Below, in pieces: positions 7,761 to 35,616 of a DNA stretch of 44,131 bases. A program made the translations under genes and the position numbers. Below the pieces are notes generated by a model, which saw only the letters and a program-made list of their open reading frames with translations, ran no database searches and was not told the DNA's origin. The DNA lies in the NCBI GenBank assembly GCA_002256025.1, contig NKIB01014367.1:1-44131 (forward strand). Direction: 5' to 3'. The stretch comes from Asterionella formosa. Its lineage: Eukaryota. Each line of letters opens with the position of its first letter. The first letter of the stretch is position 1.

Positions 7761-7827
7761 GATTTGTTCGGCTTTGTTTATCAAAAATTATATAAAGTAT
7801 TTAAATGTATACAATGGAATGAATTGG

Positions 7828-13238: not shown

Positions 13239-16200
13239 TTAAATTCCTGGGGATTCAGCATGGTGAAAGATTCGTCCATCGGGAAACGTCTCAATGCCAA
13301 AGCCATAGGGTTCATTATGTCGAAACTCGCCTTTGTAGGAACGACCATCTGGCCAAACGCATTCGCCTACACCCTCAAACATATTGTTTTTCCATTCTCC
13401 TTCATAGTATCCTCCTTCGGGAAAGTCGCATCGACCCCAGCCATTCTTGTCGCCATCTTCAAATTCACCAACGTAGATTGATCCATCGCTGAAAGCAAAT
13501 GTGCCATGTCCATGACGTACACCCTGAGTGAATGTTCCAACATATTTACCTGCCCCTCTACTTTGTGTGCCTTGTCCATGAAGTTGACCTTTCACAAATT
13601 CACCCAAGTAACAGTCACCGTTGCCTTCGCACAGCGTGCCGCACCCATCCCAATAACCTCCCTTCCATTCGCCCTCATAGACTAAACCATCATGATTGTA
13701 CACCATCTTACCAAATCCTTCAGGTACATCGAAATCGAGGGAGAGAGATCCTGAGAAAAATCCAGCATTACCTACTTGATCAATAAAAGTGAAATCCGTC
13801 ACTTGATATGTTTTGCCATTCTTTGGTGTATCAATGCCATCTGATTGTGTCCGGGATTGCTTTTCCTTTGCTGATAACTGACCAAAACATTTTGATTCGG
13901 AGGCATCGTTCGGTATTGAAGAAGTATTTTGAGGATCTTCGGAAGCCAAACTGAGTTCACTCCAGTGCTCATGTCGTTCCAAATCACCCACTTTGTTCCC
14001 TTCCGACAACATAAACATGGGTTCGCCACTAAAAGAAATTCGGTCTGGGGGTCCATGCAGTGAAGGAGCGCAACTATTGAGGTCTTCAGATATGTAACTG
14101 CATTGGCAACAACTTTCTGTTTGTTCCCATCCATTGTTCAATGCAACATCTCGAGGCGAATCACCCATGATTGCTCCACAAAAACACTTTTCTATGGTGT
14201 CGTTTCCAGATCGCAATTGATTGAGCTCGTCGGAGGATAAACTTGGTTGGCTGGAACTTTTATTGGATTCCTTCGTGTCAACCAGTATTGCCCCTGGCGG
14301 CGTTTCTGAAAATACTTGAAAGCTTGACAAGTCACCGGGATCTTGAACTGTATTTTCAATGTTGATATTCGTGAATGATGAATTCGATTCTTTCTCATTT
14401 TCTTCACAATTCTTTGAAACACCTGCCTCGCTTTGTCGATTTGCCTTCCAAATAGATACTCGATCTAACCACTTAAGTCTAGAGGGCTTTGGCGATGAAG
14501 CAGCAAAAATGTCCTGCTCTGGCGATGGAAACTGTTCAATGACCTCTTCACACAGCTCCAAGCCTTCATTAATTACCTCAGTGTACGAATTGTTCAAGGT
14601 CCCTGCATCTAAATCTATGAAGAAATCAGGATCTGAAGGTTCCACCAGAACCTTGTCGCCTGCGAAGTTCGATTCCATCCATCCCTCGTCCTGATCCAAG
14701 GAGTCGACCTCTAAAGGGACATGCATGGATCCTCCCCCATGAGATGCTTCTCGTGACACACTCGGGACCTCTTCAGCTATCGCTGTTTCTTCACCACAAA
14801 GTCGTTTCTGTTCGGGCCAGCATTGCTGTCCTCCCTCCAGGGTCTGCTCTACAGACTCTTGAGCAAATGGTTCCCCCTTGTGATGATCTTGCACTTCAAT
14901 TATGGCTATCTTTGGACTTTTTGTGCATGACTCTGTCAAGGAATTGTAGCCTAATGTGTTTGTGCAATTCATTACAGTAGGCGCATCCTGGACGACCTGT
15001 TCTGAATGGTAACACTTGAGCCCCTCAGATGCTAACTTAAAATCATCTTGACCTTGGTCTTGCACAATTGTATCTGCAATTGTTGCCTCCCGAGCTAAAA
15101 ACTTCGAAAATGCTCGACCACCAGTAGGAACTTTCGGAACTATAAGCTCTGCCTTTTCAGCTGTATCACTGTCGCCAATGTAATCTTTGCACTCAATGCT
15201 GTTTTCTTGTAAAATCTCCGTCGGGACATCCTTCACAGAAGCTTGACGAAAAGGGGCCTTCTTACGATGAGCTTGTGAGGGACGAAGACTCTTGCCAAAT
15301 TTAGGGACCAATTTTGATTCAATTATAGAATCAATGATATCTGGTTCCTCCTCTTCCTTCTCCACATGCTCAGGAACGGGCGCTCCATCACATTCAGCAG
15401 CTTCACGGTACTCGTGTAAGGTGAAAGTAGTTGAGGGAGAATTATTGATCTGCTGTGATGATGGAATTCGATCAATATTTTCGTCACAACGCACCAAGCC
15501 CTCATTAATTACCTCAGTGTGCGAATTGTTCAGAGTCACTGCATCTAATTCTATAAAGAAATCAGGATCTGAAGGTTCTACCAGAACCTTGTCGCCTCCA
15601 ATGTTTGTTTCCATCCATCCCTCATCCTGATCCAAGGAGTCGACCTCTAAAGGGACATGCATGGATCCTCCCCCATGAGATGCTTCTCGTGACACACTCG
15701 GGACCTCTTCAGCTATCGCTGTTTCTTCACCACAAAGTCGTTTCTGTTCGGGCCAGCCTTGCTGTCCTCCCTCCAGGGTCTGCTCTACAAACTCTTGAGC
15801 AAATGGTTCTCCCTTGCGATGATCTTGCACTTCAATTATGGCTATCTTTGAACTTGTTGTACATGACTTTTTTGGTTCACATAAAGAATCAATAATAGCT
15901 GATTCCTTCTCTTCCTTATCCACATGCTCAGGAACGGGCGCTCCATCACATTCAGCAGCTTCACGGTACTCGTGTAAGGTGAAAGTAGTTGAGGGAGAAT
16001 TATCGATCTGCTGTGATGATGGCATTCGATCAATATTTTCGTCACAACGTTCCAAGCCCTCATTAATTACCTCAGTGCACGAATGGTTCAGAGTCACTGC
16101 ATCTAATTCTATGAAGAAATCAGGATCTGAAGGTTCTACCAGAACCTTGTCGCCTCCAATGTTTGTTTCCATCCATCCCTCATCCTGATCCAAGGAGTCG

Positions 16201-19200
16201 ACCTCTAAAGGTACATGCATGGATCCTCCCCCATGAGATGCTTCTCGTGACACACTCGGGACCTCTTCAGCTATCGCTGTTTCTTCACCACAAAGTCGTT
16301 TCTGTTCGGGCCAGCATTGCTGTCCTCCCTCCAGGGTCTGCTCTACAGACTCTTGAGCAAATGGTTCCCCCTTGTGATGATCTTGCACTTCAATTATGGC
16401 TATCTTTGGACTTTTTGTGCATGACTCTGTCAAGGAATTGTAGCCTAATGTGTTTGTGCAATTCATTACAGTAGGCGCATCCTGGACGACCTGTTCTGAA
16501 TGGTAACACTTGAGCCCCTCAGATGCTAACTTAAAATCATCTTGACCTTGGTCTTGCACAATTGTATCTGCATTTGTTGCCTCCCGAGCTAAAAACTTCG
16601 AAAATGCTCGACCACCAGTAGGAACTTTCGGAACTATAAGCTCTGCCTTTTCAGCTGTATCACTGTCGCCAATGTAATCTTTGCACTCAATGCTGTTTTC
16701 TTGTAAAATCTCCGTCGGGACATCCTTCACAGAAGCTTGACGAAATGGGGCCTTCTTACGATGAGCTTGTGAGGGACGAAGACTCTTGCCAAATTTAGGA
16801 ACGAATTTCGATTCAATTAAAGAATCAATGATATCTGGTTCCTCCTCTTCCTTCTCCACATGCTCAGGAACGGGCGCTCCATCACATACAGCAGCTTCAC
16901 GGTACTCGTGTACGGTGAAAGTAGTTGAGGGAGAATTATCGATTTGCTGTGATGATGGAATTCGATCAATATTTTCGTCACAACGCACTAAGCCCTCATT
17001 AATTACCTCAGTGTGCGAATTGTTCAGAGTCACTGCCTCTGGCGCTCCATCACATACAGCAGCTTCACGGTACTCGTGTAAGGTGAAAGTAGTTGTGGGG
17101 GAATTTTCGATCTGCTGTGATGATGGAATTCGATCAATATTTTCGTCACAACGCACCAAGCCATCATTGAAAACCTCAGTGCACGAATTGTTCAGAGTCA
17201 TTGCCTCTAATTCTTTGAAGAAATCAGGATCTGAAGATTCCACCAGAACATTGTTGTCTCCATTGTTTCTTGATTCAATTATAGCATCAATGATATCTGA
17301 CTCCTCCTTTTTCTTCTCCATTTGTTCAAGAACGGGCGTTGCATCACATACAGCGGCTTGACAGTACTCGTGTACGGAAAAAGTAATAGAGGAAGAATTA
17401 TCGATCTGCTCTGATGATGGAATTCGATAAATATTTTCGTCACAAACCTCCAAGCCATCATTGAAAACATCAGTGTACGAATTGTTCAGAGTCACTGCCT
17501 CTAATTCTTTGAAGAAAAAAGGATCTGAAGATTCCACCAGAACCTTGTTGTCTCTATTGTTTCTTGATTCAATTATAGCATCAATGATATCTGACTCTTC
17601 CTCTTTCTTCTCCATTTGTTCAAGAACGGGCGCTGCATCACATACAGCGGCTTCACTGTACTCGTGTATGGAAAAGGAAATTGAGGAAGAATTATCGATC
17701 TGCTGTGATGATGGCATTCGATCAATATTTTCGCCACAACGCTCCAAGCCCTCATTAATTACCTCAGTGTACGAATGGTTCAGAGTCACTGCATCTAATT
17801 CTATGAAGAAATCAGGATCTGAAGGTTCTAACAGAACCTTGTCGCCACCAATGTTTGTTTCCATCCATCCCTCATCCTGATCCAAGGAGTCGACCTCTAA
17901 AGGGACATGCATGGATCCTCCCCCATGAGATGCTTCTCGTGACACACTCGGGACCTCTTCAGCTATCGCTGTTTCTTCACCACAAAGTCGTTTCTGTTCG
18001 GGCCAGCATTGCTGTCCTCCCTCCAGGGTCTGCTCTACAGACTCTTGAGCAAATGGTTCCCCCTTGTGATGATCTTGCACTTCAATTATGGCTATCTTTG
18101 GACTTTTTGTGCATGACTCTGTCAAGGAATTGTAGCCTAATGTGTTTGTGCAATTCATTACAGTAGGCGCATCCTGGACGACCTGTTCTGAATGGTAACA
18201 CTTGAGCCCCTCAGATGCTAACTTAAAATCATCTTGACCTTGGTCTTGCACAATTGTATCTGCATTTGTTGCCTCCCGAGCTAAAAACTTCGAAAATGCT
18301 CGACCACCAGTAGGAACTTTCGGAACTATAAGCTCTGCCTTTTCAGCTGTATCACTGTCGCCAATGTAATCTTTGCACTCAATGCTGTTTTCTTGTAAAA
18401 TCTCCGTCGGGACATCCTTCACAGAAGCTTGACGAAATGGGGCCTTCTTACGATGAGATTGCGACGGACGAAGACTCTTGCCAAATTTAGGGACCAATTT
18501 TGATTCAATTATAGAATCAATGATATCTGGTTCCTCCTCTTCCTTCTCAACATGCTCAGGAACGGAAGCTCTAGCACATGCGCTAACACCGCGATACCCT
18601 GAGAAATGACGAAGAGTTTTGACTGATTCAGATTTCACTGATAATTCAATCTGATCGTCATCCGCGTGTGAGCCCCCCTCATGACTCGCTCGATGAGATT
18701 TTAAGTCTGACACAACATGTGATAATTTTGATTTATGGGGTGCTGCATGACAAGGAACACTTTTGAGTTCATCTGAAAATGTCAACATTTCACTCAGTCC
18801 TTCAATGCTACTTTCTTGATTGATGTTCTGCAACGAGACGTAGTGTAATGATTTAGGAAGTCCTTGTCCAGAAGGTGCAGAGTGGAGCTCCTCGGACGCC
18901 ATCATCAATTCTTTTTTACCATTGCGATCGACCATTTCTTCTGGCGCCCAAAACTTTGCACCTGCCCTAGCAGGAGAAACTACCGGTACAAACTCAGTCT
19001 TTTCATTTTCACCTGGAGGACTGTTTCTAATATCATGTCCACTCGACTCGAAGAGCGCCTGATCACATGGGCCTTTTGTATGGAATAATTGGAGAGAACT
19101 TTTGCTTTTACCATCGTCGTCAGTGTTTAACTTCTCCTCCGCATGGGACAGAGAAACAGGCGCAGATCTACGAAAGCTCGGTATTGTGGATTCTCCTAAC

Positions 19201-22200
19201 ACGGACGGTATGCGAGTTGGAATTGCTGTCGACACACTTGGTTTCCTCGGTCCTACTTTCTTCAGCAAGTGTTCCAGAAAGTTGGATTGGGGCACCTTCC
19301 TAGGGCTTCCTTGTACTGCAGGTTCCCCCTTGTGGTCCACTGTTGTGGAACTCACTTCGAAATGTTTAAGTGGCTTTGCCTCACGACAATGGATTTTTGC
19401 GGATGGTTGACTACTTGGTTCTCCAGGAGGTTTAATCTTGATCTCTTCAAAAGTTTGACTTTCTCCATAATGGCCCCAGCGCTGCCCTTGGCGGTGATCA
19501 AACCATTCTTCTCCGGCACAATCTTCTTTCTCGGACACGTGATCAAATTGTGTGAGGCGCCCCTCGCTTGCGGGTGCACAATTGTCCTCGTAAAACTCGT
19601 ACAAAGAGTTGTCCCCATAATCCTTATGCTCCCGGCTATATAATTTTTCAGGAGTGGAGGTGAGAATCTCGGATTCTAGAACAACTGAGCTTTCAAGAAT
19701 TGAAATTTGAGGCTTCTCACGATCATTCTGCTTTTCCAAGGCATGAAGGAAACCAAATGAACCTGGATTTCCAGGCTCTTGACCTGAACACAAAGGCTTG
19801 ACTGATTTGGTTATGGAACCCGAAGTAGGTTCAATCTTACTGACCAGCGCTTCCAAAGTATCTACATCATATTTTCGCAACAATGCCAGTAAAGAATCAG
19901 TACCGAACCAGTGGGTCTTTTTTTGGGCCACTTTTTGCGACGATTGTTGTTCTTTGATTTGCTCCGGTAGCGAGCTTTCACTATCTGTCGAGCCTTGAAA
20001 CATTATCCAATTCAGCTTCGGAACGTGCTCATTGTCAAGTTGGATTTGCCGTTGGTTGCTTTGTACTGGGGACACATTCTGGAGCTTCTCGGATTCCAAA
20101 CTCGGCAAAATATTTGCAGCTAAGCCACGAGAAACGCTCTCGACTTTGTCACATTTCTGGTTCAACTCTTCGTGCTTTGGAAATCGATCAAAGTTCATTG
20201 CTCGATGTGACGACACTAGAGGAGTTTTGTCCCATTGCATTTCATTTTGAATTTCTGGAACCAATGAAGGATTGAATAATTCGTCTGAAAACCTCGGCTC
20301 AAACCAGTTTTTCTTTACCGACAAATTGCGAGTGACCTCGCTTGGTAATGTCGTGCTTGACGCAGGGTCATTCAGGTCGAGCTCCTGAGTAAACGTTTTC
20401 TTCACCGACTCTTGATAGCACATGTTCGCTTTGAGAGTTTCGTCCAAAAGCCCGTGCTGGATTGATGTGAATTCACTTCTACCATTGTCGTTTTCTGAGT
20501 ATCTCGCATCTGTTCCGCTAAATGACTGTACACTAACCACCTCGTTTTCAATGGGCTCTGGATAAGTGAGCCCATTCTTGAGTCTTGTGGATGTCTCAGT
20601 CGTTGCAGTGCAACCTTCCTTGATTTCCAAAGCATCAGTTTCTCTATGTTGGTGCAACGCTAATGAGGGCGTACGATGACGAGAGAATGTATTGCGTGGT
20701 AAACGCAATACATTCGTAGTCGTCACCTCCTTGGATTCCAAAGTCGGTTCAAACAAAACTTCGTCGTCCTTCGATGCAAATGATTTCACCATTGGTGTTA
20801 AATAGTTTAGGTGCTTACCATGTGAGCGTTGTTTCAGGAGCCCATGACCAGGATGGGCACCCTTGCTCCCGACAGAAACTGTTTTTTCATCCAGCTTCTT
20901 TGCGTCGACCTTGGCCCCTTCTTCCATCTCCGATACAGTTTGTACTAGACTCGAGCCATTATCTATGTGCGCTTTTCTTGCAACATCGTTCTTGAGCCTT
21001 GTGAGTGTAGTCACATTCATTGCACCCTCACTATCGTGATTTTCCAAGGCATTCACTTTGCCATCAGCAGTTCGGTTTTTTGATGGCTTGAGCGATAAAT
21101 GATCAGTCTTGGGTTTCAATGATTCAGAATTTGGTTCATGGAAGGCTTCATCTTCCTTTACTGTATTACTTTTTTCTAATGGCACAACATTCAGTTGCTG
21201 ACCATGTGAGAGACGTTTTGGGGGAGTGTGATATGAAGGTACATGCTTACGCTCGACAGAATTTAATTGGCATTCTCCCCAAATCCTTGCCATTTCGCTT
21301 CTGAAATTTCTGGATGGTGAATCGAATCCTTTGTCGTTGACGCCTTTAGAAAACAGGGATTGCGCACCTTCAACGGATGCCGCAACAGCAACAGCCTTTA
21401 TGTCGTATGCTACATTCTGATTTAACCGTGAGCCCATGTCTGAACCGGAATTATTCACCACCAAAGGATCCACGCTGTTATCTTCTTTATTTTGATCGTG
21501 AAACACCACAGGAGAAAATAGTAGCAGGTCATCCAACTCGTCCACTTCCCGACTTTCAAGGACGTTTAGTGGCTCTGTAGCTGTCAGGTCCGATCGGCAA
21601 TGCTCCGGCGGAATCGTGTAAAGCACTACCAGATCCTCAGACTGCTTCACTGTCGTCCTAAACAGAGAATCATTATTTCGTTCCGTGGGGGGATGTGCTT
21701 GGTCTTCTTGTGTTGATGTTATTCCATTTCGCCTCAAATTCTTGTTCATGACCTTACCATCATCTTTCACTTCAAATGATAATCGTTCATAATTTAATTC
21801 TTTTTCGAATTGAACTGGTTTTGTAGCCCCATCTTTGAGCCTAGTGAGTGTAGGCGCATGCTTTTTCTGATACTTCAAATCATCAACTTTGCCATGAGTG
21901 ATTCGATCGGATGGCTTGGGTAGTACATGCATAGACTTGGGTTCCAATGATGTAGAATTTGGTTCATGACAAGCTTCGTCATCCTTTGAGCTATCGTTTT
22001 TTAAGTTTGCCGGCGAAACCTTTACTTGCTGACTTAGTGAGCGTCGTTTCGAGGGATTGTAATCTGAAGGCACCTGCTTGCGCCCGCCAGAAGCTACTTG
22101 GAACTCACTCCAAATTTTTGCCACATCAATTTTGAACTGCATCGAATCTAATCGGTTGTCGCTGACGCTTTTGGGAACCAGGGATTGCGCGCCTTTAGAA

Positions 22201-25200
22201 GAAACAGCCTTAATTTGGCACGTTTCTTTCGGATTTGGTGGCGAACCCACGTCAAACTTAGTCGCCGTCCACACATCATCATCCATGCTGCTGTTTTGAT
22301 TGCGTTGATCGTGGAATACAACGGGAGAAAATTGTAACAGGTCATCCAGCTCGTCTCTTTTTCTAGTTTCTAGTATGTGTAGTGGCTCTGTGTGTATAAA
22401 AGTCTCAGGAGTAATCATATCAAGCACTGCCAGATCCTCAGCCTTTTCCTCTGTCGTGGTTGACGAAGAAACAATCATATTTTCTTTAAAGCCATATGTC
22501 GAAGGATGTGCATCGCCTTCTCGAGTTGTTGTTTGGGCATTCCACCTCCAATTCTTTATCTCGGCCTTAACTTCACCTTTAATTTCTGGTTGTGATTTCT
22601 CAGACTCCATTTCGCGTGGCATTTTTTTGGTAATCTCGTTCTTAAGCCTTACTGATGTAGTAACGACCTCACTACCCTGAATTTCCTGTTTTTCTAAATC
22701 ATCAGCTTTGCCATGAGAAATTTGTGTAGATGGCGTAGTCAGTACATGCACACTCTTGAGTTCTACTGATTCCGAATTCGCTTCACAAATGGCTTTGTTT
22801 TCCATCACTACAGGTACAGCCTTGAGTTCCACTGATTCCAAGTTTAGCTCACAAAAACCTTCGTTGTCCTTTAAGCAATCTCGTGTTTCCTTCGAAGGGA
22901 CATCGTTCTGTTGCTGACCAAGTGAGAGTCGTTTCAGAGTATTATGACCTGAAGGTACATGCTTTCGTCTGCCAGAATCTAATTGAGATTCACTCCTTAT
23001 TCTTGGTATTTTGTTTTTGAAATTTCTGGATAGTCGATCGAATCGATTATCTTTGACACTTTTAGAAATCAGTAATTGCGCGTCTTTAACCGAATCAGCA
23101 CTTGTTTGGTGAAGTACATTCTGATTTAGCGGCGAATCCATGACCAACTCAGACGTCTGTGATACGTCATGACCCGTGCGGTTGCCTTGATTGTTGTGAT
23201 CGTGAAATTCTAAGGGAGAAAATAATAAAAGTTTATCCAGTTCGTCAACTTCCGGACTAATCAGGCGAAGTGGCTCCGTAGCTGTCAGGATGTGTGTAAC
23301 AACCTCTGGCGAAACGCTGTCACGCTCTATCATGTCCTCTACTATCTGCCCTTTCTTTGGTAACAGGCGATCAATATTTCTCGCTGCAAGGCAATCGGTT
23401 GATAAAGAACTTGCTCGATATTCGCCCGTTGTTTTGATTGCGCTCCATCTAAATTCATTTAGCGCGGCCTTAACCTCCTCTTCCACCTCCAATGATGATT
23501 GTTCAAAACCTGCTTCTTGGCCAAGATGGTCAATGCCTCCAACCTTAATTTTGAGAATTGCGGGTGCAGTAACATTTGGTGCAGCCAGTACTTCCTTATT
23601 TTCCCAATCATTACCTTGTATATTTCGGTGTATTATGGAAACTGGAGTATGAGTGATGCTGTGGGGTGATTTATGCATTCGACGCAAATTTTGGCGTTTC
23701 ACTCTCTCCTTTCGTGGCGAATCAGTGTGAGAAGTCGGGAACACCAAATTTGTGCTAATTTTGTGTTGATCGTGAAAAACAACAGGAGAAATTGGTAGCA
23801 CTTCATCCATCTGATTAACTTTTTCACGTTCAAGTACCTGTGGCGGCTCTGTAGCTATCAGGTCACCTCGACAAGTGTTTTTCGGAATCATATCATGCAC
23901 CGCTAGATCCTCCACATTTTTCTCTGTCGTCGTTACCGGGCAATCAATCCTATCTTTGGATAGTAGGCTCTGCGTTGAGGAAAAATATGGATCGTCTCTA
24001 CTGGTTTCTGGTACCAAACCCTCCTTCAATTTCTGTATAGAAGCATTCAACTCGTCTTCCATATCCGATGGATGTGTCATTGTTTCTAATAGTGTGGTTG
24101 TACTATTCGTGTCCCAATTTCCCGACGATAGTTTGAGCGTTTCCTCAATCTCTTCCAACAGTTGCGATGTACTTTTCAAGTCATACGTGCCTGACGATGA
24201 CGTTTCCATGTCAAGGCTTCTGGTTCGTATAGCAAGCATGGCCACAGGTAAGCTTCCCATCGGTTTCGAAATAGAACAATACTTATTATTATTGCGAGCT
24301 TCCGCTAATAATGTTCGATTGGGTATTATAGATAGTGGTTCGTCATGTATCGGTAGATGCTGTCCTGACGATGACGTTTGCATGTCAAGGCTTCTGGTTC
24401 GTAAAGCAAGCATGGCCACAGGTAAGCTTCCCATCGATTTCGAATTAGAACAATACTTATTATTATTGCGAGCTTCCACTAATAATGTTCGATTGGGTAT
24501 TGTAGATAGTGGTTCGTCGTGTATCGGTAGATGTTTTTGGTCAGATGCGACAGTTTCCATGGGTAAATCACCGTCGAACAGTTGTTCAAGTGTTTGGGGG
24601 ACAAGTTTATTTGCCTCCATCATCTCATCATCATTCGAGTCCTTTCGTTTTGGTGCCGACCGGTACGCCTTTTTTCGCTTAATCAACGATTCCACGCTAT
24701 TGTTAGTGTAGGAGCCAATTAGTGTTGGGCTCGTCCTGGCCACAGATGCCTCCTTTGACATGAAATTTTTTACCATGAACGGTTCTGGAAGGACTCGTTC
24801 TCTCAATGCGATCTGCTGATGTTGGACCTCCATACTAAGCGGGGCGGTGTCCTTTGTAGTATCAGCTGAACCTTGTGGCGGTGTTGACCATATCGTTCTG
24901 TCTGTGAAAACGTTGACCACAGATGCTCTTTTATTTTGTAATAGAGCTAATGATGGATAATTTTCAATCTTAGCTGATTCTGGATGAACCGTAATGGTCT
25001 GGCCAACCCATGAATCAGGGATGATTCTGTATCGTTGCTCCCGAGCGCGCATGGATGATCTCGCTCGTTTCTTCTTCCTTTTCCCCCTATTGTAGTTTTC
25101 AGCATCATCTGCTTCTTCTGTCATGGGCGGAGCAACGTCATTGTGGTACTCATTGTTCGTGGTTTTGGCAGAGGCTGAGTGCTTCCATCGTCGTCGTTTC

Positions 25201-25466
25201 AGTGCTTGTTCCATGTAGTACTGCTCATCCTTACTGCTATTCTTTCTTAGTGCGACTTGTAGTTCGTTACGGATTAATGCTATCTCTGCACGGGTAGTAG
25301 ACATGTGGAGCAGTTGTCGCCGACGATCTCTATTGTTCTTCGTCTTCGTCGTCGCAGTGTTCTTGTCGTTGTTTCTTGCCCCTTTCCGAGGATGCAGGAA
25401 GACAAACTCTGGAATCAAATGATGATTGCTATTGGAGATTTCATCATTATCCATGCTCGTGGTCAT
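13239..25466 (-). CDS. Giant MORN-repeat protein (~4075 aa) with long repetitive acidic disordered linker
   Basis: 12.2-kb stop-free frame; first ATG at 25466. The C-terminal ~170 aa (13239-~13750) contain about seven MORN units (YEGEWKGGYWDGCG, YLGEFVKGQLHGQG, YVGTFTQGVRHGHG, YVGEFEDGDKNGWG, YEGEWKNNMFEGVG, YKGEFRHNEPYGFG). Confidence 0.9.
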   Translation of the reverse strand: MTTSMDNDEISNSNHHLIPEFVFLHPRKGARNNDKNTATTKTKNNRDRRRQLLHMSTTRAEIALIRNELQVALRKNSSKDEQYYMEQALKRRRWKHSASAKTTNNEYHNDVAPPMTEEADDAENYNRGKRKKKRARSSMRAREQRYRIIPDSWVGQTITVHPESAKIENYPSLALLQNKRASVVNVFTDRTIWSTPPQGSADTTKDTAPLSMEVQHQQIALRERVLPEPFMVKNFMSKEASVARTSPTLIGSYTNNSVESLIKRKKAYRSAPKRKDSNDDEMMEANKLVPQTLEQLFDGDLPMETVASDQKHLPIHDEPLSTIPNRTLLVEARNNNKYCSNSKSMGSLPVAMLALRTRSLDMQTSSSGQHLPIHDEPLSIIPNRTLLAEARNNNKYCSISKPMGSLPVAMLAIRTRSLDMETSSSGTYDLKSTSQLLEEIEETLKLSSGNWDTNSTTTLLETMTHPSDMEDELNASIQKLKEGLVPETSRDDPYFSSTQSLLSKDRIDCPVTTTEKNVEDLAVHDMIPKNTCRGDLIATEPPQVLEREKVNQMDEVLPISPVVFHDQHKISTNLVFPTSHTDSPRKERVKRQNLRRMHKSPHSITHTPVSIIHRNIQGNDWENKEVLAAPNVTAPAILKIKVGGIDHLGQEAGFEQSSLEVEEEVKAALNEFRWSAIKTTGEYRASSLSTDCLAARNIDRLLPKKGQIVEDMIERDSVSPEVVTHILTATEPLRLISPEVDELDKLLLFSPLEFHDHNNQGNRTGHDVSQTSELVMDSPLNQNVLHQTSADSVKDAQLLISKSVKDNRFDRLSRNFKNKIPRIRSESQLDSGRRKHVPSGHNTLKRLSLGQQQNDVPSKETRDCLKDNEGFCELNLESVELKAVPVVMENKAICEANSESVELKSVHVLTTPSTQISHGKADDLEKQEIQGSEVVTTSVRLKNEITKKMPREMESEKSQPEIKGEVKAEIKNWRWNAQTTTREGDAHPSTYGFKENMIVSSSTTTEEKAEDLAVLDMITPETFIHTEPLHILETRKRDELDDLLQFSPVVFHDQRNQNSSMDDDVWTATKFDVGSPPNPKETCQIKAVSSKGAQSLVPKSVSDNRLDSMQFKIDVAKIWSEFQVASGGRKQVPSDYNPSKRRSLSQQVKVSPANLKNDSSKDDEACHEPNSTSLEPKSMHVLPKPSDRITHGKVDDLKYQKKHAPTLTRLKDGATKPVQFEKELNYERLSFEVKDDGKVMNKNLRRNGITSTQEDQAHPPTERNNDSLFRTTVKQSEDLVVLYTIPPEHCRSDLTATEPLNVLESREVDELDDLLLFSPVVFHDQNKEDNSVDPLVVNNSGSDMGSRLNQNVAYDIKAVAVAASVEGAQSLFSKGVNDKGFDSPSRNFRSEMARIWGECQLNSVERKHVPSYHTPPKRLSHGQQLNVVPLEKSNTVKEDEAFHEPNSESLKPKTDHLSLKPSKNRTADGKVNALENHDSEGAMNVTTLTRLKNDVARKAHIDNGSSLVQTVSEMEEGAKVDAKKLDEKTVSVGSKGAHPGHGLLKQRSHGKHLNYLTPMVKSFASKDDEVLFEPTLESKEVTTTNVLRLPRNTFSRHRTPSLALHQHRETDALEIKEGCTATTETSTRLKNGLTYPEPIENEVVSVQSFSGTDARYSENDNGRSEFTSIQHGLLDETLKANMCYQESVKKTFTQELDLNDPASSTTLPSEVTRNLSVKKNWFEPRFSDELFNPSLVPEIQNEMQWDKTPLVSSHRAMNFDRFPKHEELNQKCDKVESVSRGLAANILPSLESEKLQNVSPVQSNQRQIQLDNEHVPKLNWIMFQGSTDSESSLPEQIKEQQSSQKVAQKKTHWFGTDSLLALLRKYDVDTLEALVSKIEPTSGSITKSVKPLCSGQEPGNPGSFGFLHALEKQNDREKPQISILESSVVLESEILTSTPEKLYSREHKDYGDNSLYEFYEDNCAPASEGRLTQFDHVSEKEDCAGEEWFDHRQGQRWGHYGESQTFEEIKIKPPGEPSSQPSAKIHCREAKPLKHFEVSSTTVDHKGEPAVQGSPRKVPQSNFLEHLLKKVGPRKPSVSTAIPTRIPSVLGESTIPSFRRSAPVSLSHAEEKLNTDDDGKSKSSLQLFHTKGPCDQALFESSGHDIRNSPPGENEKTEFVPVVSPARAGAKFWAPEEMVDRNGKKELMMASEELHSAPSGQGLPKSLHYVSLQNINQESSIEGLSEMLTFSDELKSVPCHAAPHKSKLSHVVSDLKSHRASHEGGSHADDDQIELSVKSESVKTLRHFSGYRGVSACARASVPEHVEKEEEEPDIIDSIIESKLVPKFGKSLRPSQSHRKKAPFRQASVKDVPTEILQENSIECKDYIGDSDTAEKAELIVPKVPTGGRAFSKFLAREATNADTIVQDQGQDDFKLASEGLKCYHSEQVVQDAPTVMNCTNTLGYNSLTESCTKSPKIAIIEVQDHHKGEPFAQESVEQTLEGGQQCWPEQKRLCGEETAIAEEVPSVSREASHGGGSMHVPLEVDSLDQDEGWMETNIGGDKVLLEPSDPDFFIELDAVTLNHSYTEVINEGLERCGENIDRMPSSQQIDNSSSISFSIHEYSEAAVCDAAPVLEQMEKKEEESDIIDAIIESRNNRDNKVLVESSDPFFFKELEAVTLNNSYTDVFNDGLEVCDENIYRIPSSEQIDNSSSITFSVHEYCQAAVCDATPVLEQMEKKKEESDIIDAIIESRNNGDNNVLVESSDPDFFKELEAMTLNNSCTEVFNDGLVRCDENIDRIPSSQQIENSPTTTFTLHEYREAAVCDGAPEAVTLNNSHTEVINEGLVRCDENIDRIPSSQQIDNSPSTTFTVHEYREAAVCDGAPVPEHVEKEEEEPDIIDSLIESKFVPKFGKSLRPSQAHRKKAPFRQASVKDVPTEILQENSIECKDYIGDSDTAEKAELIVPKVPTGGRAFSKFLAREATNADTIVQDQGQDDFKLASEGLKCYHSEQVVQDAPTVMNCTNTLGYNSLTESCTKSPKIAIIEVQDHHKGEPFAQESVEQTLEGGQQCWPEQKRLCGEETAIAEEVPSVSREASHGGGSMHVPLEVDSLDQDEGWMETNIGGDKVLVEPSDPDFFIELDAVTLNHSCTEVINEGLERCDENIDRMPSSQQIDNSPSTTFTLHEYREAAECDGAPVPEHVDKEEKESAIIDSLCEPKKSCTTSSKIAIIEVQDHRKGEPFAQEFVEQTLEGGQQGWPEQKRLCGEETAIAEEVPSVSREASHGGGSMHVPLEVDSLDQDEGWMETNIGGDKVLVEPSDPDFFIELDAVTLNNSHTEVINEGLVRCDENIDRIPSSQQINNSPSTTFTLHEYREAAECDGAPVPEHVEKEEEEPDIIDSIIESKLVPKFGKSLRPSQAHRKKAPFRQASVKDVPTEILQENSIECKDYIGDSDTAEKAELIVPKVPTGGRAFSKFLAREATIADTIVQDQGQDDFKLASEGLKCYHSEQVVQDAPTVMNCTNTLGYNSLTESCTKSPKIAIIEVQDHHKGEPFAQESVEQTLEGGQQCWPEQKRLCGEETAIAEEVPSVSREASHGGGSMHVPLEVDSLDQDEGWMESNFAGDKVLVEPSDPDFFIDLDAGTLNNSYTEVINEGLELCEEVIEQFPSPEQDIFAASSPKPSRLKWLDRVSIWKANRQSEAGVSKNCEENEKESNSSFTNINIENTVQDPGDLSSFQVFSETPPGAILVDTKESNKSSSQPSLSSDELNQLRSGNDTIEKCFCGAIMGDSPRDVALNNGWEQTESCCQCSYISEDLNSCAPSLHGPPDRISFSGEPMFMLSEGNKVGDLERHEHWSELSLASEDPQNTSSIPNDASESKCFGQLSAKEKQSRTQSDGIDTPKNGKTYQVTDFTFIDQVGNAGFFSGSLSLDFDVPEGFGKMVYNHDGLVYEGEWKGGYWDGCGTLCEGNGDCYLGEFVKGQLHGQGTQSRGAGKYVGTFTQGVRHGHGTFAFSDGSIYVGEFEDGDKNGWGRCDFPEGGYYEGEWKNNMFEGVGECVWPDGRSYKGEFRHNEPYGFGIETFPDGRIFHHAESPGI
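14560..18565. repeat. Array of recent near-identical in-frame duplications (full unit ~936 bp / 312 aa plus partial units)
   Basis: The anchor gagtcgacctctaaag recurs at 14701, 15637, 16195 and 17887 (offsets 936, 558 and 1692, all multiples of 3). Copies differ by scattered substitutions. Confidence 0.95.
20900..23950. repeat. Four old, diverged in-frame repeats with a TEP...DE(L/V)...SP(V/L)(V/E)FHD core
   Basis: gatcgtg(a/g)aa anchors (FHD codons) at 21494, 22307, 23198 and 23768; peptide similarity is visible in the translation. Confidence 0.85.
24190..24533. repeat. 174-bp (58-aa) in-frame tandem duplication
   Basis: HLPIHDEPLS...RTRSLDM(Q/E)TSSSG x2; cctgacgatgacgttt at 24190 and 24364. 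Confidence 0.95.
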
Positions 25467-25505
25467 TTGCAACAGTTTCTACGATGCTGTTGTAGATAGA
25501 GATAT

Positions 25506-25545
25506 GATGGATAGATGGATAGATGGATGGATGGATGGATGGATG
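25506..25545. repeat. (GATG/GATA)n tetranucleotide microsatellite just upstream of the giant gene ATG
   Basis: Read directly. Confidence 0.9.
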
Positions 25546-25737
25546 AGAGTTGGTCGTATGAGGATCGGTGATTCGATACAGCTTTCCAGCACGACGAGGA
25601 CGATATTCCAAAACGAAATAATGATAAATACTTAATAGATGCATTTTGTGCATAAAAATAACAAATAAGAAACCACATCAGGCACACAAAAATTCCTCCT
25701 CCCTTTCCTACATCCGCCTACGGACATCATACGGAGT

Positions 25738-25757
25738 ACCGGTAATATATTACCGGT
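25738..25757. repeat. Perfect 20-bp palindrome accggtaatatattaccggt within a GTAC-rich upstream patch
   Basis: The sequence equals its own reverse complement. Confidence 0.9.
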
Positions 25758-27539
25758 GGTATAAAATGCATCATATATGATTGCTTTGGTTCATGGAGGC
25801 AGGACAACGTATTACCTGGTACCTGGGGAGTACCAGGGTACTGTAGCAGTTACAGTCGACCGGTCATACATTTATACTTACTATTGGCGAGTGAACTGGT
25901 ACCCAGGTTGTTGTTACCTGGTAGTGGTAGTCTGTATGTACCATGGTACTCGAGTACGAATAATAACATATATGTACGCACAATAGAAAATCTCAATGTG
26001 AGCGAAGCAAATTACCGGCAGAGAAGGAAGGGGCTTTGCTTTTGAATTTGTTGTATTTTGGAAAATTGCCATACAATCGTGTATAGACTCGACACATTTT
26101 CACCACGTTTGAAAAAGTATTTCCCTTTCTGCCTATTTAAATATAGTAAGTGTGCAACAACAACCAAGATGTTGGGATAGATATCGCTGTCTACATACCG
26201 TGATGTTAATGCATGGCATTAAATACATAAGGCATCAAGTTTGCTTAGTAAGTATACGTGTACCAGTAGTATCATACCTTATGTTCCGTTTTCATAGTAC
26301 ATTTGAGACAGAATGATGCATGACTTATTTTGTTCGTTTCGTCCTATATATATATAATGTTGGACAAGTAATAAATAACGGTATTAAACACAGGTACGTA
26401 GAATCATGTTTGTCGGTTTGTCGTCATACTATATCGGTAGGGGGTTTTGGCGAGCGAAGAAACACCCAACAAGATGTGGGACATATTTGTAGTAGGGACC
26501 CCTCAATGCAAGTCATCATGTCACTTAGAAAGGCGATTCATTTCGTTCCTGTAACCCCGCCAAAAGGATTATTGATGTCTGATCGTATCGTATAACATAC
26601 ATTTTTTTCCACTGGTTCAATTGCTGGCACACTCGGTGAAAGTACCAGGTACCGAACGTAAACTGCAGAGCACTATGCTGCAGTATCAGTATGATACCAA
26701 ACCAGGGACAAGGATACCGGTAATTGTCATTCCCTTTTCGAAATACCAATCTGTTCTAGAATTTTACCAGTGTAAACTGATCTAACTTTCCAGCATACTG
26801 TTAAGTATACGGAATCTTACAGAAATTCCGAAATGTCTTGTAAAGGATTGGAGTGCCAAATTCCTCAGCACAAACTAGGAGCTCCTAAACGACATACATA
26901 CCAGTAGTACCGGTACCATACATAAAAATCAGCATTACATCATCACATCATCATCATCATCATCATCACAAAAATTACACATGCAGCATGTTGTTCTTCA
27001 AACTAGATGCAACTAAAAGGGCATTCTAAGTTCTTCACACTGTTTTAATGCTAAATTAATATTGTTTTGTCACTGCAATAATGAGAAAGGAAATCAGGTG
27101 TTGATTGGAAAATGATTTCCTTAAGCTAATAGATAGTCTATAGGGCAAGCTTAAGACTGAAATGTGACCAGGATTGGCTGAGAGATGAAGAAGTTGAAAA
27201 TCGTGAAGTAAAAATAATTTTTTTTGGGATTTTTAGATCAGTTATGTTTTGCTGTAGAAACCACTTGTAAATGTAGTAGTTTCACCATGATGAAGCTTTT
27301 ACATACATACAGGCCAGTATGTTTGCCATGATGAGTCTGATTCAAGCAACAGTAACTCTGCTGCTAACTGGGATGTTCTACTCCGCTTTTTCACAGTGCT
27401 GTTGAACTAGAAATGCATCCACATTATGCCAAGAGTATCATTGAATGCAGCTATGATCAGAAAACAACAAAAAATCGCCATTCAACAGGTTGAAAGCGTC
27501 CACTTTGTCCAACAACTAACAAATGCCTTCATGGAACTT

Positions 27540-27830
27540 TCACCCAAAGCATCCAATGCCATCATGTTATAAGCGCCGCAACAGGTACTAATGATATCTA
27601 CGAAATCAAGCAACGACTGCTTTCACAAAGCGCCCACTGTAAGCAACAACCAGCAAGCACGCGAGCACTGTCTGTAGAGGCTATGGTACCGGAAATGTCA
27701 CCCAAATCATCCAATGCCATCATTCAACAAGCACCAAAACAGCAATGACATCTACAGCATCAAGAAAGAGACTGCTTCGGCGAAGTACCGCCTACTAAAA
27801 CAACAACCAACAAGCAGGAAAGCGCTGTAG
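27540..27830. repeat. Diverged ~158-bp tandem duplication, possibly part of a decayed coding sequence
   Basis: tcacccaaa(g/t)catccaatgccatcat at 27540 and 27698, with similarity continuing to caacaacca(g/a)caagca. Confidence 0.75.
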
Positions 27831-28315
27831 TGGCAATTGAACCGGACAGGCCCACTCACAGCAAGCAAGTGCCAACAAGAATAAGAATGATAATCACATC
27901 TATAAAGGCGGATAAAAATACATGTTAATATGATATTATATTTCTTTGTTACTTCAAGAATGGCGATTTGATTTGATTGATTTTCGACTAGAAATAGTAC
28001 AGCTTAAGAACTACTCCAAGTAGCGAATATACCATCATAGTTGTATACCATGATAGGTGAAAAATACACAAGGAGTGAAGTTAGTAAAATCAAGATGTCC
28101 TACACTGTCGCTATTTTGGTAGAGACAAAGTCACCTGTTAACTCTTAGAGTCGTTCATGGTCTCCAATGAATTCGAATAGACCGGTCTTTTGCCTCCAAA
28201 GGGTGTTAAGCTCCGTAATGGTCTGATGAAAAGGTACTAGTACTACCATGATCATTGGAGATTCACTAGCTTTGTCGTCTTGACTGATTTTTAGGGGTAT
28301 CAAATCAATGTTGAC

Positions 28316-28744
28316 CAATGATTACTATGTAATAGTTTTAAAAAGTACTATAGCGTTTTATTGACCAGCCTCCTCAAAAAAACTTGGGAAACAACGAAAA
28401 CAAATTTTAGCTTTAACAACCAACCCGGGAAAATGGAAAAGGCATTGTTGCATGTGTACCACAAAAACTAAAAGCGTGCAACCTCGTCAACCTCATTATG
28501 GCTATCAATTCTCTCAAGATTTAACCACAATGATTGCTGTGTAATAGTCTTAAAAAGTATTATAGCGTTTTATTGACCAGCCTCCTCAAAAAAACTCGGG
28601 GAAACTACGAAAACAAATTTTAGCTTTAACAACTAACTCGGAAAAATGGAAAAGGCATTGTTGCATGTGTACCGCAAAAACTAAAAGTGTAGCTACAACC
28701 TCGTCAACCTCATTATGGCTATCAATTCTCTCAAGATTTAACCA
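28316..28744. repeat. ~212-bp tandem duplication (two highly similar copies)
   Basis: caatgatt...tatagcgttttattgaccagcctcctcaaaaaaact...ctatcaattctctcaagatttaacca, starting at 28316 and 28528. Confidence 0.95.
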
Positions 28745-29048
28745 AAGAAACCTGGTTTTGAGAGAAGAATGATTATTTAGATAAACATGATTGCAGAACC
28801 AAAGAACTAAACTAGCTAATGTACCAGGTACTCCTACGAGCATGATTGCCTGCTGCATCCTTGGGTTTGTCGGCAAAAAATGATAGAAAGAATAAGAATA
28901 CTGCTTTGGTAGCAGTATCAGTATACTGGCATACTAGTATACTGTCATCCATCCTGTAGAACTTATAAGATTTACTTTGGTCTGTTATAAGGGAAATCTC
29001 AAGATGATTTTCAACCAGCCACCAACAAAAGAGGAAATATTTTAGTGT

Positions 29049-29370
29049 AAACTGGCGTGTTTACAGTTATTTTATCAGTGACAATGGACATGATTCACAG
29101 CAATCAACGGCTGTATCACTGATACAGAATTGGTCAGGGATCCAAAAACTGTATCAGTGATACACCAATGACAGACTGGTGATCAGACCTAAAATCCCGC
29201 TGGTGATACAAAAATATGATACAAACCGCCATTTTCGAAACGGAGATGATACACCTTTGAGAATTAACCAGTGACAAAATGATATGAGCGGCCCTAAGAA
29301 AATTATTCCGGCTGTCACCATAAAATGCACGCTGATTCCAGTGATAGTGCTTTCTAGACTACACCAGTGT
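29049..29370. mobile_element. Possible MITE/non-autonomous DNA transposon remnant with iterated TGATACA/CAGTGA motifs
   Basis: Palindromic ctgtatcactgatacag (29111-29127) and its near inverse ctgtatcagtgatacac (29149-29165), many half-sites, and weak terminal inverted similarity (aaactggcgtg / tacaccagtgt). Confidence 0.35.
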
Positions 29371-29481
29371 CATACATAAGGCACAAAAATGGAAGGCAGT
29401 AAATCTAAATCACTTCTTCCTCGATGAATGAACGCTAGATCAACAATAACCAACAACTTACTTCCTGGTTGCCAAACATGG

Positions 29482-30921
29482 TCATACTTTTTTGATAATC
29501 TTGGGAGCATTACAATGCCATTTTCCGTTGTGCCGGATCCGGCCATCTGCAAACTTCTCAACTCCCCACCCATGACATTGACTTTTTCGAAACTGGCCTT
29601 TGTAGGAACGACCATCAGGCCACATACACTCACCTTGGCCCTCAAACTTATTGTTGAACCATTCCCCTTCATAATAACCTCCTTCAAGAAAGTCACACCT
29701 TCCACGGCCCTGCCTAACCCCGTTTTCAAAATCGCCAACATAGACTGCTCCGTCTGGGAATGTAAATTGCCCTTTACCATGACGCACATCTCGGAGAAAT
29801 TCCCCAACGTACTGTTTACCTGATGTCCAAGTGTAGGTGCCCTGTCCATGGCGTTGGCCATTCACAAATTCTCCAACGTACATGTCACCATCTCCATTGC
29901 AAAGGGTGCCACATCCATCCCATTGCCCTCCTTTCCATTGTCCTTCGTAGAATCTGCCATCCAAGTCGTAAAGCATCTTGCCAAAACCTTCTGGTGATTT
30001 CAACTCTCTAGCGAGAGCTCCTGTGAAAAGTCCAGTAGCTCCTTTTGAATCTATACAAGCAAAATCTTTCACTTGAAATGTCTCAACATTAGTGCGTTGT
30101 TCCAAGTCGTAGGACACTGCATTTGGAAGCGATGCCAACACTGATATTAAGTTTAAATACCCTTTGGAGGCATTCGAAGGAGCCAAAACACAGTCAGATA
30201 ATTCATTTGAAAAATCCTTATTCTCACTCGTAAAAAGTCGGTTTGTTCCAAATTCAGGCCCTGTCCCTCTTGTATCTTTGCGAGAAGGGTTCAGAGGACG
30301 TTCGCTTTCGTGTTTGTTCTGGGCTTGCCGAACATGCTCCTTTGGACGAGAGCGTCGAATTGGCGAGTTGGTGCTAGCATCACCACAGGGCGAAGAAATA
30401 CTTGCTAAATTTTCCGCATTTTCTGATGATGCCTCTTCTTCGTCATCTCGAAGACCTAGATGAATATCTTGGGAAAAACTGACCCGTTTCAATGACGCAT
30501 TCGTTTGTTTCGCAGGAACGATGTTCCTGCTGTTGGCAGCATCCATTGATTCACGTTCCTTATCTGGAGTTACCATGGGAATCAAGAAATCATTCTGAAC
30601 CACTGCTTGTGATGCAGTTTCAATATCCATGTTGTCGGCTCGCCTCTTCAAAGCGTCCTCAATGAATTGATCCTTTTTTGCTAGCTCGTCTCTGAGTGAT
30701 GCAATCTCGGCTTGGCTGTCAGTCAGCTGATGATGAAGCTTCTGAACTAGCAGCTTAAGAGTTGCATTTTCTCTGTAGCTATTAATAGAAAAATTGAATT
30801 GCTGACTCGATTGATTCCCGGCGTCGTCAGCTTTCTCCTCCTCCTCCACTTCCTCTTCCTCCTCCTCCCCTGGCTTCTGCTTCTGCGACTTGGTGACCGG
30901 CAGAAATTTGATCGGGTTCAT
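29482..30921 (-). CDS. MORN-repeat protein with N-terminal coiled coil (~479 aa)
   Basis: First ATG at 30921 (track start is GTG); poly-E tract; ENATLKLLVQKLHHQLTDSQAEIASLRDELAKKDQFIEDALKRR; about seven C-terminal MORN units. Confidence 0.92.
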   Translation of the reverse strand: MNPIKFLPVTKSQKQKPGEEEEEEVEEEEKADDAGNQSSQQFNFSINSYRENATLKLLVQKLHHQLTDSQAEIASLRDELAKKDQFIEDALKRRADNMDIETASQAVVQNDFLIPMVTPDKERESMDAANSRNIVPAKQTNASLKRVSFSQDIHLGLRDDEEEASSENAENLASISSPCGDASTNSPIRRSRPKEHVRQAQNKHESERPLNPSRKDTRGTGPEFGTNRLFTSENKDFSNELSDCVLAPSNASKGYLNLISVLASLPNAVSYDLEQRTNVETFQVKDFACIDSKGATGLFTGALARELKSPEGFGKMLYDLDGRFYEGQWKGGQWDGCGTLCNGDGDMYVGEFVNGQRHGQGTYTWTSGKQYVGEFLRDVRHGKGQFTFPDGAVYVGDFENGVRQGRGRCDFLEGGYYEGEWFNNKFEGQGECMWPDGRSYKGQFRKSQCHGWGVEKFADGRIRHNGKWHCNAPKIIKKV

Positions 30922-33789: not shown

Positions 33790-33885
33790 GTGCTGATGAT
33801 TGGTTTTTCGACAGGAGTTCACGTTATTTCAATTCCGCCCAAAACGGTACAGCAACTGTCTTGTACGAGTGACATTTTCGTTGCA
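33790..33885 (+). repeat. Left copy of a ~95-bp inverted repeat (partner 35521-35616)
   Basis: gtgctgatgattggtttttcgacaggagttcacgttatttcaat...gtcttgta...acattttcgttg matches the reverse complement of 35521-35616 with a few substitutions and indels. Confidence 0.9.
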
Positions 33886-34052
33886 GGTCGCTCTGGTCCG
33901 GTTTCTTACAACACCCATCCTATGATAATCAATAATTCCTCATCTCTACGCACCTTGAGCAAAATGCAGAATCCAGTAAAATGATTTAACAAACCTGCCT
34001 CAGGAATATTATTACCGGTGCCAGATAGACAAGAAGCAAGGTGACTTCAGAA

Positions 34053-34881
34053 ATGGCAAACACGAAACTTCAAAATATTGCTGACGAGATGATGCATAAT
34101 ACTGCTAGCAGTTGCAACCACGAAGAGCAATCCAATATCAAAGCAAAGGAGAAAAAACAACACATCAAGAAGAAGGAAAAGGTCGAGAAGGCACGAAGAT
34201 AATTGCAACATCAAATGATCCCTAGTACTTGCACTGCATCCTGTAGCGAGGATCCATGCGTGATGAAGATCACAAAGGAACCAGAGAAGGCTCCAAGAAG
34301 AACTAAAAACCACCAATGCTGTGATCAGAATCCGCGGCAAAGGAACGAAGAGAACTGTTTCAGTGGCGCAGCCTGCAACTCGAAGTTTTCCCAGCATATC
34401 GGAACCATGTTTATCCCCGGAATCACTGGAAGGGCCAGATGTCTGCATGACGCAGTTGCTTTGCCGACAGTCGTCGAACACAACCGCTTTCCTAAACAAG
34501 GAAGAAATCAAGCAGCTAGTACAGGTATGCAAGCTGATGAAGCTGTTACTTGTGCACTAGTCATTCGCGACATGGTCCATAGGACCTCCTCCTACTACAG
34601 TGACAAGTCCATTGCGAACCTCAAGGACACTTGGAATGAATACCGTCAAGGATGTGACACTATGTTCAAATGAAAGACAAGCTAGCTTACACAAACAACT
34701 TTTTAATATCCGACTCTTACTTGAAGAAACTCGGTCTGTTGGGTCACATGCTACTCTCACCAGTAGGCAAACATTCAACTCCTCTGCGTCAAACCCCAAC
34801 GAGGTTACTAGACCAAAGGAAAGTCACCGGCGACGACAGGCCCTACCGAAGATGTTGGTTGAAGGATCAATTGCCGCCTGA
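34053..34881 (+). pseudogene. Pseudogene paralog of 37802-38719 (in-frame TAA, internal deletion, frameshift)
   Basis: MANTKLQNIADEM...SNIKAKEKKQ resembles ELQEIPTEM...CNIKAKKKQ. TAA at 34200-34202. MFIPGITGRARC. NLKDTWNEYRQGCDT resembles NLKEAWNDYRDGCDT. Homology shifts frame near 34660-34670 (ERQASLHKQLFNIRLLLEETR). Confidence 0.8.
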
Positions 34882-35520
34882 ATGCATGGAACGATACGAA
34901 CTTCATGTCACTATAGTTACAACTAGTAATAGTTCCTAATATTGCAATTTCAGAGATCTTTTCATTTTTTGTACTACTTGTGAAGAGCAACAGGGTCCGA
35001 TTGGACACAAACGATCATGTCATCTCGGCTTTAGCAGCTGACATCTACTAGGCTAGCTTAAAAAAAGTTAACAGCAATTCTATCCACCGAAGAAAGAAAT
35101 AAGCAATTCTCATGGTGTGTGATCATAATTTATATTACTGTACATGTGTCTGCTTGCTTCTTGCGTGTTGCTTGTTGTCGCAGAGGACTCCATTATGCAC
35201 TATAAATCCCTTTGTCGATTTGAAAGGCCATCATTCTTTGCTGTATATATGCAACACCGCTGTCAACAAATCGGAATTCCATGTTGAACCGTGGCGTACC
35301 GCATGTATTTTTTAACCCTTCGGTGCAGGAAGAAGCAAGCCCACCTCCTGTTTTCAAAGATATCTCAGTCACATACTCGTATAACTTTTATTTATCTTAA
35401 CTACCGGTAATCGGAAATTTGAATTTTTTTTAAATCCATCCCAGGTTTTAAGAATTGGCAATACTTAGGCGATGGTCGATTAAGTATCGCTGTGGCGAAA
35501 TGTCGCACTTGAAGTGTGGC

Positions 35521-35616
35521 TACAACGAAAATGTTGTGCATACAAGACAGTTGTACGGTTTTGTGCGGCATTGAAATAACGTGAACTCCTGTCGAAAAAC
35601 CAATCATCATCAGCAC
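35521..35616 (-). repeat. Right copy of the ~95-bp inverted repeat (partner 33790-33885)
   Basis: ttgaaataacgtgaactcctgtcgaaaaaccaatcatc is the exact reverse complement of the core of the left copy. Confidence 0.9.

Follow-up and report, generated by a model that had tools for sequence, protein, structure and literature searches.

Two genes lying in tandem on the minus strand of a 44,131-nt contig of Asterionella formosa (NKIB01014367.1 in assembly GCA_002256025.1; hereafter the window) encode proteins of 479 and 4,075 amino acids (aa) with a common C-terminal MORN domain, and comparison of these domains supports the view that both genes, here called short and giant, are paralogs from one duplicated gene; repeats in its spacer further support growth of the giant through in-frame internal duplication. 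The window is one entire contig without N, taken from an assembly of 68 Mb in 15,436 contigs. The tandem pair had been proposed in a first-pass annotation of the DNA and both open reading frames (ORFs) were indeed found in place (Table 1), the giant ORF as a single open frame counted from its ATG and lying downstream of the short ORF across a gap of about 4.0 kb. Genetic code 6 was also considered and proved unnecessary, since the standard code yields both ORFs.

Relationship of the short and giant proteins

MORN was the sole Pfam family matched in either protein (PF02493; 102.6 bits for short and 54.9 bits for giant, with a curated cut-off of 22.5), identifying both as MORN repeat proteins. 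Aligned across 198 aa, the C-terminal blocks are 61% identical (E 3e-83), a score matched by none of 500 shuffles, and their DNA is 70.8% identical over 548 nt, confirming the common C-terminal MORN block that had been noticed by eye. AlphaFold2 models of the two domains, with predicted local distance difference test (pLDDT) values of 95.7 for short and 95.0 for giant, displayed consecutive 23-aa beta-hairpins in a twisted sheet, and a Foldseek search with the short domain returned TgMORN1 with a template-modelling (TM) score of 0.83. Aromatic YxGxW motifs are retained in both domains, and the residues outside them, 279 in short and 3,884 in giant, all lie N-terminal to the seven repeats and their cap. 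A terminal G-x-W strand, present in short and in nine other relatives listed, is missing in giant and in P0010, a record from another strain whose MORN domain is identical to that of giant (0 of 191 changes, versus 7 of 304 upstream). Between the two paralogs the synonymous divergence (dS) of the MORN domains is 1.2 and the ratio of nonsynonymous to synonymous divergence (dN/dS) is 0.23, indicating an old duplication and a constrained domain. Predicting a complex of the short MORN domain with itself gave a score of 0.03, which carries no weight in either direction.

Directly before the first MORN repeat, both paralogs and 29 other rows carry a cap hairpin of the pattern V..D..G..G.[YF][TS]G, and the rows of our trees were restricted to sequences matching this pattern. 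The MORN domains of giant and short were recovered as sisters with support of 96/89 in the 31-row tree and 93/87 in a tree of 18 of those rows, in agreement with the paralogy proposed in the first-pass annotation. Around them lies a subfamily comprising P0005, P0008/P0247 and P0007/P0129, and approximately unbiased (AU) tests rejected the grouping of either paralog with P0008 (p 0.01 and 0.005). Further capped-MORN domains occur in the same genome and in other diatom-like proteins, where a coiled coil and a spacer of variable length usually precede them, and the database holds seven near-identical records in the cluster of the short protein. Among 80 loci retained of 331 on metagenome contigs, the top identity was 49% and none fell in the subfamily, and the ESM Atlas gave one low match (0.84) to a MORN cluster, which serves as a lead only.

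Probable direction of change and growth of the spacer

The N-terminal helices earlier quoted as common to both proteins were located in both genes, and the likeness between them is weak. Alignment of the short helix with the first 300 aa of giant scored 70, which was reached in 2 of 2,000 shuffles and in 7 of 2,000 local shuffles; with the entire non-MORN part of giant as target, 17 of 300 shuffles attained the same score, and a DNA-level test was non-significant (62 of 500 shuffles reached the score). A two-sequence profile of short and P0247 matched residues 72-98 of giant at 5.5 bits, a value reached by none of 500 shuffles (best 5.1). A genome search with the first 100 aa of short returned only itself, the giant head being absent at E<=1, and the coiled-coil profile of the wider family matched the short head weakly (9.3 bits) and gave no match in giant. 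The helix is probably homologous in the two proteins and eroded in giant. The likeness exceeds most shuffles in the first 300 aa and weakens in the comparisons with the whole non-MORN part and at the DNA level. The description of the pair as having the same head and tail was overstated, since the initial half of the head and the terminal G-x-W strand are both missing from giant.

The direction of these changes is suggested by P0247, a protein of 884 aa in the same cluster as P0008 and outside the giant/short pair, with a spacer of about 575 aa. Its head matches that of short (score 81, reached by none of 500 shuffles) and shows no match to giant (295 of 500 shuffles reached the score), and the exact 8-mer YRSAPKRK is common to the P0247 spacer and giant (0 of 1,000 shuffles). 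Given that P0247 has both the spacer motif lost by short and a head motif lost by giant, both copies appear to have changed, in opposite directions, which argues against the earlier picture of fixed ends with only a linker growing from ~200 to ~3,800 aa. Judged from these sequences, the likeliest course is a loss of spacer in the short copy and growth in giant.

The spacer of giant lies to 71% in internal repeats, compared with 67% in P0129 and 0% in both short and P0247, and 27 of 27 DNA self-matches in giant start in frame, although these are not independent events. Both results support growth through in-frame internal duplication, in line with the internal expansion supposed in the first-pass annotation. 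The units of an old repeat tier share 30-56% protein identity with dS of 0.6-0.7, and a young acidic tier, which includes three near-identical cores, shows 77-97% DNA identity. Copies of the spacer elsewhere in the genome were found only on contig G000:C10918, so that, as far as this search reached, nothing points to a mobile repeat dispersed in the genome. P0129 (1,604 aa) carries spacer repeats unlike those of giant, suggesting that expansion occurred at least twice.

A spacer of such length invites the proposal, also made at first, that the pair forms a length-tunable molecular ruler in which both ends are anchored and the spacer length sets a cellular distance. Spacers in the subfamily indeed measure about 185, about 575, at least 1,400 and about 3,790 aa, and the P0129 lineage expanded independently, in accordance with such a role. 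However, the repeat periods of giant are nested and irregular (56, 59, 98, 186, about 270, 498 and 564 aa) and provide no regular units, its composition is mostly disorder-like (15 of 19 windows negative by FoldIndex, a crude index), its ends are degenerate parts, and the spacer substitutions listed below look neutral. These data do not support the ruler, which we consider very improbable.

Transcription, selection and proposed history

RNA reads were compared over the 5′ part of giant (18600-25503), the small-share runs X20-X24 being excluded. The poly(A) run X1 gave one 5,742-base contig over 18600-24260 without difference, gap or joint, as well as further RNA pieces over 24231-24434 and 24448-25503, and its depth was zero across the intergenic stretch 25544-27279. 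Run X8, an independent lake metatranscriptome from another strain, covers most of 18600-25503 and also some intergenic DNA. The 5′ half of giant is transcribed without splicing; the unspliced unit of ~12 kb expected earlier is borne out to this extent, the RNA contigs covering nearly all of its first 6.9 kb and containing no splice joint. Within the short gene, RNA cover is interrupted at 29580-29714 and 30184-30229; neither gap has a joint, and they were not read as introns.

The length of giant could in part be a product of the assembly, with cores collapsed or over-expanded or alleles joined in tandem, an explanation that is compatible with the others and that we regard as unlikely, although with enough weight to be kept in view. 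Core copy number and exact length are assembly-dependent because the three young cores are near-identical, identical stretches of 553, 390 and 360 nt recurring among them; contig G000:C10918, a separate piece of 563 nt, matches all three at 100, 99.8 and 99.8%. On the other hand, differences at 17-27 sites apiece over 843 nt separate the three copies, which lie amid different modules, the RNA contig continues past 18600 toward the first core copy, and P0010 links the last repeat copy to the MORN domain. A single core alone would still keep the frame open and give about 3,000 aa, the minimum length of giant.

Evidence for selection on the spacer is mixed. Excess synonymous change was observed in two of five young-repeat comparisons (14/27, P 0.002; 19/43, P 0.009), which are not independent, and no excess in the other three. 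The single coding indel between strains is 6 nt in length, as compared with four of six non-coding indels that are not multiples of 3. These data bear on the possibility that giant is a decaying duplicate, still transcribed, whose disordered middle tolerates in-frame duplication and whose length has no function. Such decay would fit the three comparisons without synonymous excess, the neutral look of the spacer substitutions, the eroded head and last MORN strand, and the finding of no subfamily database protein of 2,243-7,139 aa among 236 candidates, the two hits being unrelated MORN proteins that are 37-39% identical and have other domains. It fits poorly with a 12-kb frame kept open while paralog dS reached 1.2, with a MORN domain unchanged in P0010, with the synonymous excess in the two remaining comparisons and with the in-frame coding indel, and we judge it rather unlikely.

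Fast change of the spacer under diversifying pressure, for example in parasite or mate recognition, was also considered. In run X5, from another strain, differences from the window were counted at 67 of 4,219 sites in spacer contigs and at 11 of 2,225 in intergenic DNA (Fisher p 6e-5), as expected under such pressure; however, this comparison used the longest pieces only with a 95% likeness filter and may mix haplotypes, so that filter bias is possible. Nonsynonymous changes are not above the neutral level, no transmembrane segment was found in giant (highest 19-residue hydropathy 1.09) and no signal peptide was apparent in its N-terminus as judged by eye. We consider this explanation very improbable.

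Combining these results, we favour with moderate confidence a history in which the two copies split the parts of their ancestor after tandem duplication and now serve as adaptor or tether proteins. The ancestor would have been a diatom gene of about 900 aa, like P0247, with a coiled-coil head, a disordered spacer and a capped MORN sheet, which was duplicated in tandem long ago and whose parts were then partitioned between the copies. In the short copy, head and MORN tail would both have stayed complete while part of the spacer, with its basic motif, was lost. The giant copy would have kept the basic motif, suffered erosion of the head and last MORN strand, and expanded by in-frame internal duplication on two or more occasions, possibly by unequal crossing-over or slippage. 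Both proteins are most likely cytosolic adaptors, by analogy with MORN4 and with MORN1, for which one report describes dimerisation through the C-terminus and no membrane binding found for TbMORN1 (PMC7725318). According to the same report, MORN repeats are modules for protein interaction and the MORN4 groove binds the myosin 3a tail (PMC7725318), and the groove of the window proteins may likewise hold an extended partner peptide. The short copy may oligomerise through its head, and the acidic disordered spacer of giant, a protein with a net charge of -230, may provide a long and flexible tether or a surface for multivalent docking. What selection preserves would be the open frame and the MORN domain, and neither the spacer sequence nor, probably, its exact length. 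Location, partner, binding mode and direction of change are the elements of this history that we infer.

Several observations count against this history. The AU tests did not reject the grouping of either paralog with P0007/P0129 (p 0.11 and 0.12), and the sister branch of giant and short is unstarred in the 18-row tree. The ancestral state and the direction of change rest on one outgroup cluster, and P0005, P0007 and P0129 are possibly cut at the 5′ end. The first 300 aa of giant found no match among 1.84 billion representatives, and faster change of the giant MORN domain was non-significant in relative-rate tests (28 versus 17, p 0.14; 22 versus 18 twice). Run X1 shares its sample with DNA run X2, a possible source of the assembly, and is therefore not independent. 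For the unique spacer, the 40 listed of 140 strain differences comprise 12 synonymous and 28 nonsynonymous substitutions, with a neutral expectation of 11.8 synonymous, and the zero stops among these 40 have a chance of about 0.12.

A bolder version of the favoured history would be an 'accordion' tether system, in which the duplicates became a short, fully capped anchor that oligomerises and an acidic partner of great length. Spacer length would itself be under selection and would have increased separately in sister lineages, adjusting spacing or reach in a cell structure, for example the cortex or the valve-forming machinery; we hold this version to be improbable.

Table 1 Coordinates of the two paralogs and their parts in the window
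Feature	Position	Strand	Description
Short paralog	29482..30921	-	479 aa; coiled-coil head, repeat-free spacer of about 185 aa, complete capped MORN domain; RNA pieces
Short head	30640..30780	-	aa 48-94; predicted coiled coil, intact, common to outgroup P0247
Short MORN domain	29485..30084	-	cap hairpin and seven 23-aa MORN hairpins, G-x-W..P at end; Pfam, AlphaFold2, Foldseek
Giant paralog	13239..25466	-	4,075 aa in present assembly; RNA contigs over 18600-25503
Giant eroded head	25191..25280	-	aa 63-92; second half only of the putative ancestral coiled coil
Basic motif around YRSAPKRK	24627..24671	-	giant aa 266-280; in outgroup P0247/P0008, absent from short gene
Young 59-aa duplication	24189..24602	-	aa 289-426; 96% DNA identity
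Old repeat tier	20547..24149	-	aa about 440-1640; units of about 270-300 aa, three complete and one or two incomplete
Young acidic repeat tier	14511..18578	-	aa 2297-3652; nested 56-, 98-, 186-, 312-, 498-, 564-aa duplications
Giant MORN domain	13242..13814	-	predicted to fold; 1-aa deletion in one hairpin; without terminal G-x-W strand

Several further features were noted in and around the pair. Over 18600-24260, divergence of another strain from the window amounts to 1.2-2.9% in coding spacer and to about 0.5% in intergenic pieces. A 213-nt tandem pair lies at 28316-28744 between the two genes, where the summed depth of DNA run X2 is very high over 27000-29450, suggesting dispersed genomic repeats, and clusters of GGTACC-type words occur upstream of giant (25700-26000) and at the contig end (43958-44040). 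Elsewhere in the window, a single ORF of 1,462 aa on the minus strand (3399-7787) is of low complexity and Q/S/N-rich with a lysine-rich end, and has no Pfam match. Three small tandem paralogous ORFs on the plus strand (34215-34673, 36029-36499 and 37802-38719) share a C-terminal motif and about 70% DNA identity, without a convincing Pfam match in the two of the three that were scanned, and one of them is flanked by a 96-nt inverted repeat (33791-33886 and 35520-35612, 86% identical). A 247-aa protein on the minus strand (39187-39930) has a presequence-like N-terminus, judged by eye, and a weak EF-hand match under the cut-off.

Comparison with known systems

The closest relatives form a diatom capped-MORN family (P0028 from Seminavis robusta, the P0060 group, and L028 and L006 in the same genome) that has the same cap and seven C-terminal MORN repeats and, likewise, a variable spacer. 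Its N-terminal coiled coil is matched weakly by the head of short and has no match in giant. Many members carry an N-terminal C-x2-HP...CxxC head, which giant and short do not have, and the members compared measure 300-1,600 aa, as against 4,075 aa for giant. Among the capped-MORN genes of this genome, L028 (G000:C12787) has an 896-aa frame with a Cys/His head, a coiled coil and a repeat-bearing spacer, and two short near-identical copies of it with 278-aa frames, L003 and L005, lie on other contigs, so that long and short versions recur in the family. A further protein of 812 aa, L007 (G000:C168), carries three consecutive capped-MORN modules.

Very long chains with internal repeats and distinct ends are known from molecular rulers, namely titin, nebulin, YscP and phage tape-measure proteins. 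Giant resembles these rulers in all three respects and differs from them in its eroded ends and in having no regular unit. Junctophilins carry a C-terminal transmembrane anchor. Their MORN repeats are N-terminal, and those of giant and short are C-terminal, with giant lacking a membrane segment. Together with MORN4/retinophilin (PDB 6JLE), the junctophilins (PDB 7RXQ, 7RW4) share with the window domains a MORN sheet with aromatic YxGxW motifs, which in MORN4 and the junctophilins line a peptide-binding groove, and both match less strongly than MORN1 by sequence and by fold; at 146 aa, MORN4 is unlike either giant or short. The top matches by both measures (TM up to 0.83) are the MORN1 proteins of Trypanosoma, Toxoplasma and Plasmodium (PDB 6T4R, 6T6Q, 6T4D), with the same twisted beta-hairpin sheet of 23-aa repeats. 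TbMORN1 has 15 repeats and little else, unlike giant and short with seven repeats and a cap hairpin after a head and spacer, and MORN1 dimerises via its C-terminus, where giant is without the last strand (PMC7725318).

The literature, surveyed by titles and abstract beginnings, gave no description of a diatom capped-MORN family, although supplementary gene tables could list such genes, and nothing was found on a giant disordered repeat protein in diatoms. For now, giant is best described as a repeat protein that evolves fast and carries a common domain. The pair would nevertheless represent a duplicated scaffold in which complementary parts were kept by each copy and spacer length diverged about 20-fold. 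Together with a sister lineage whose parallel expansion used other repeats, it offers a natural series for asking whether selection acts on disordered-linker length. MORN scaffolds as such are already known from the systems above, and the diatom capped-MORN family with its giant/short pair appears to be a new addition to them.

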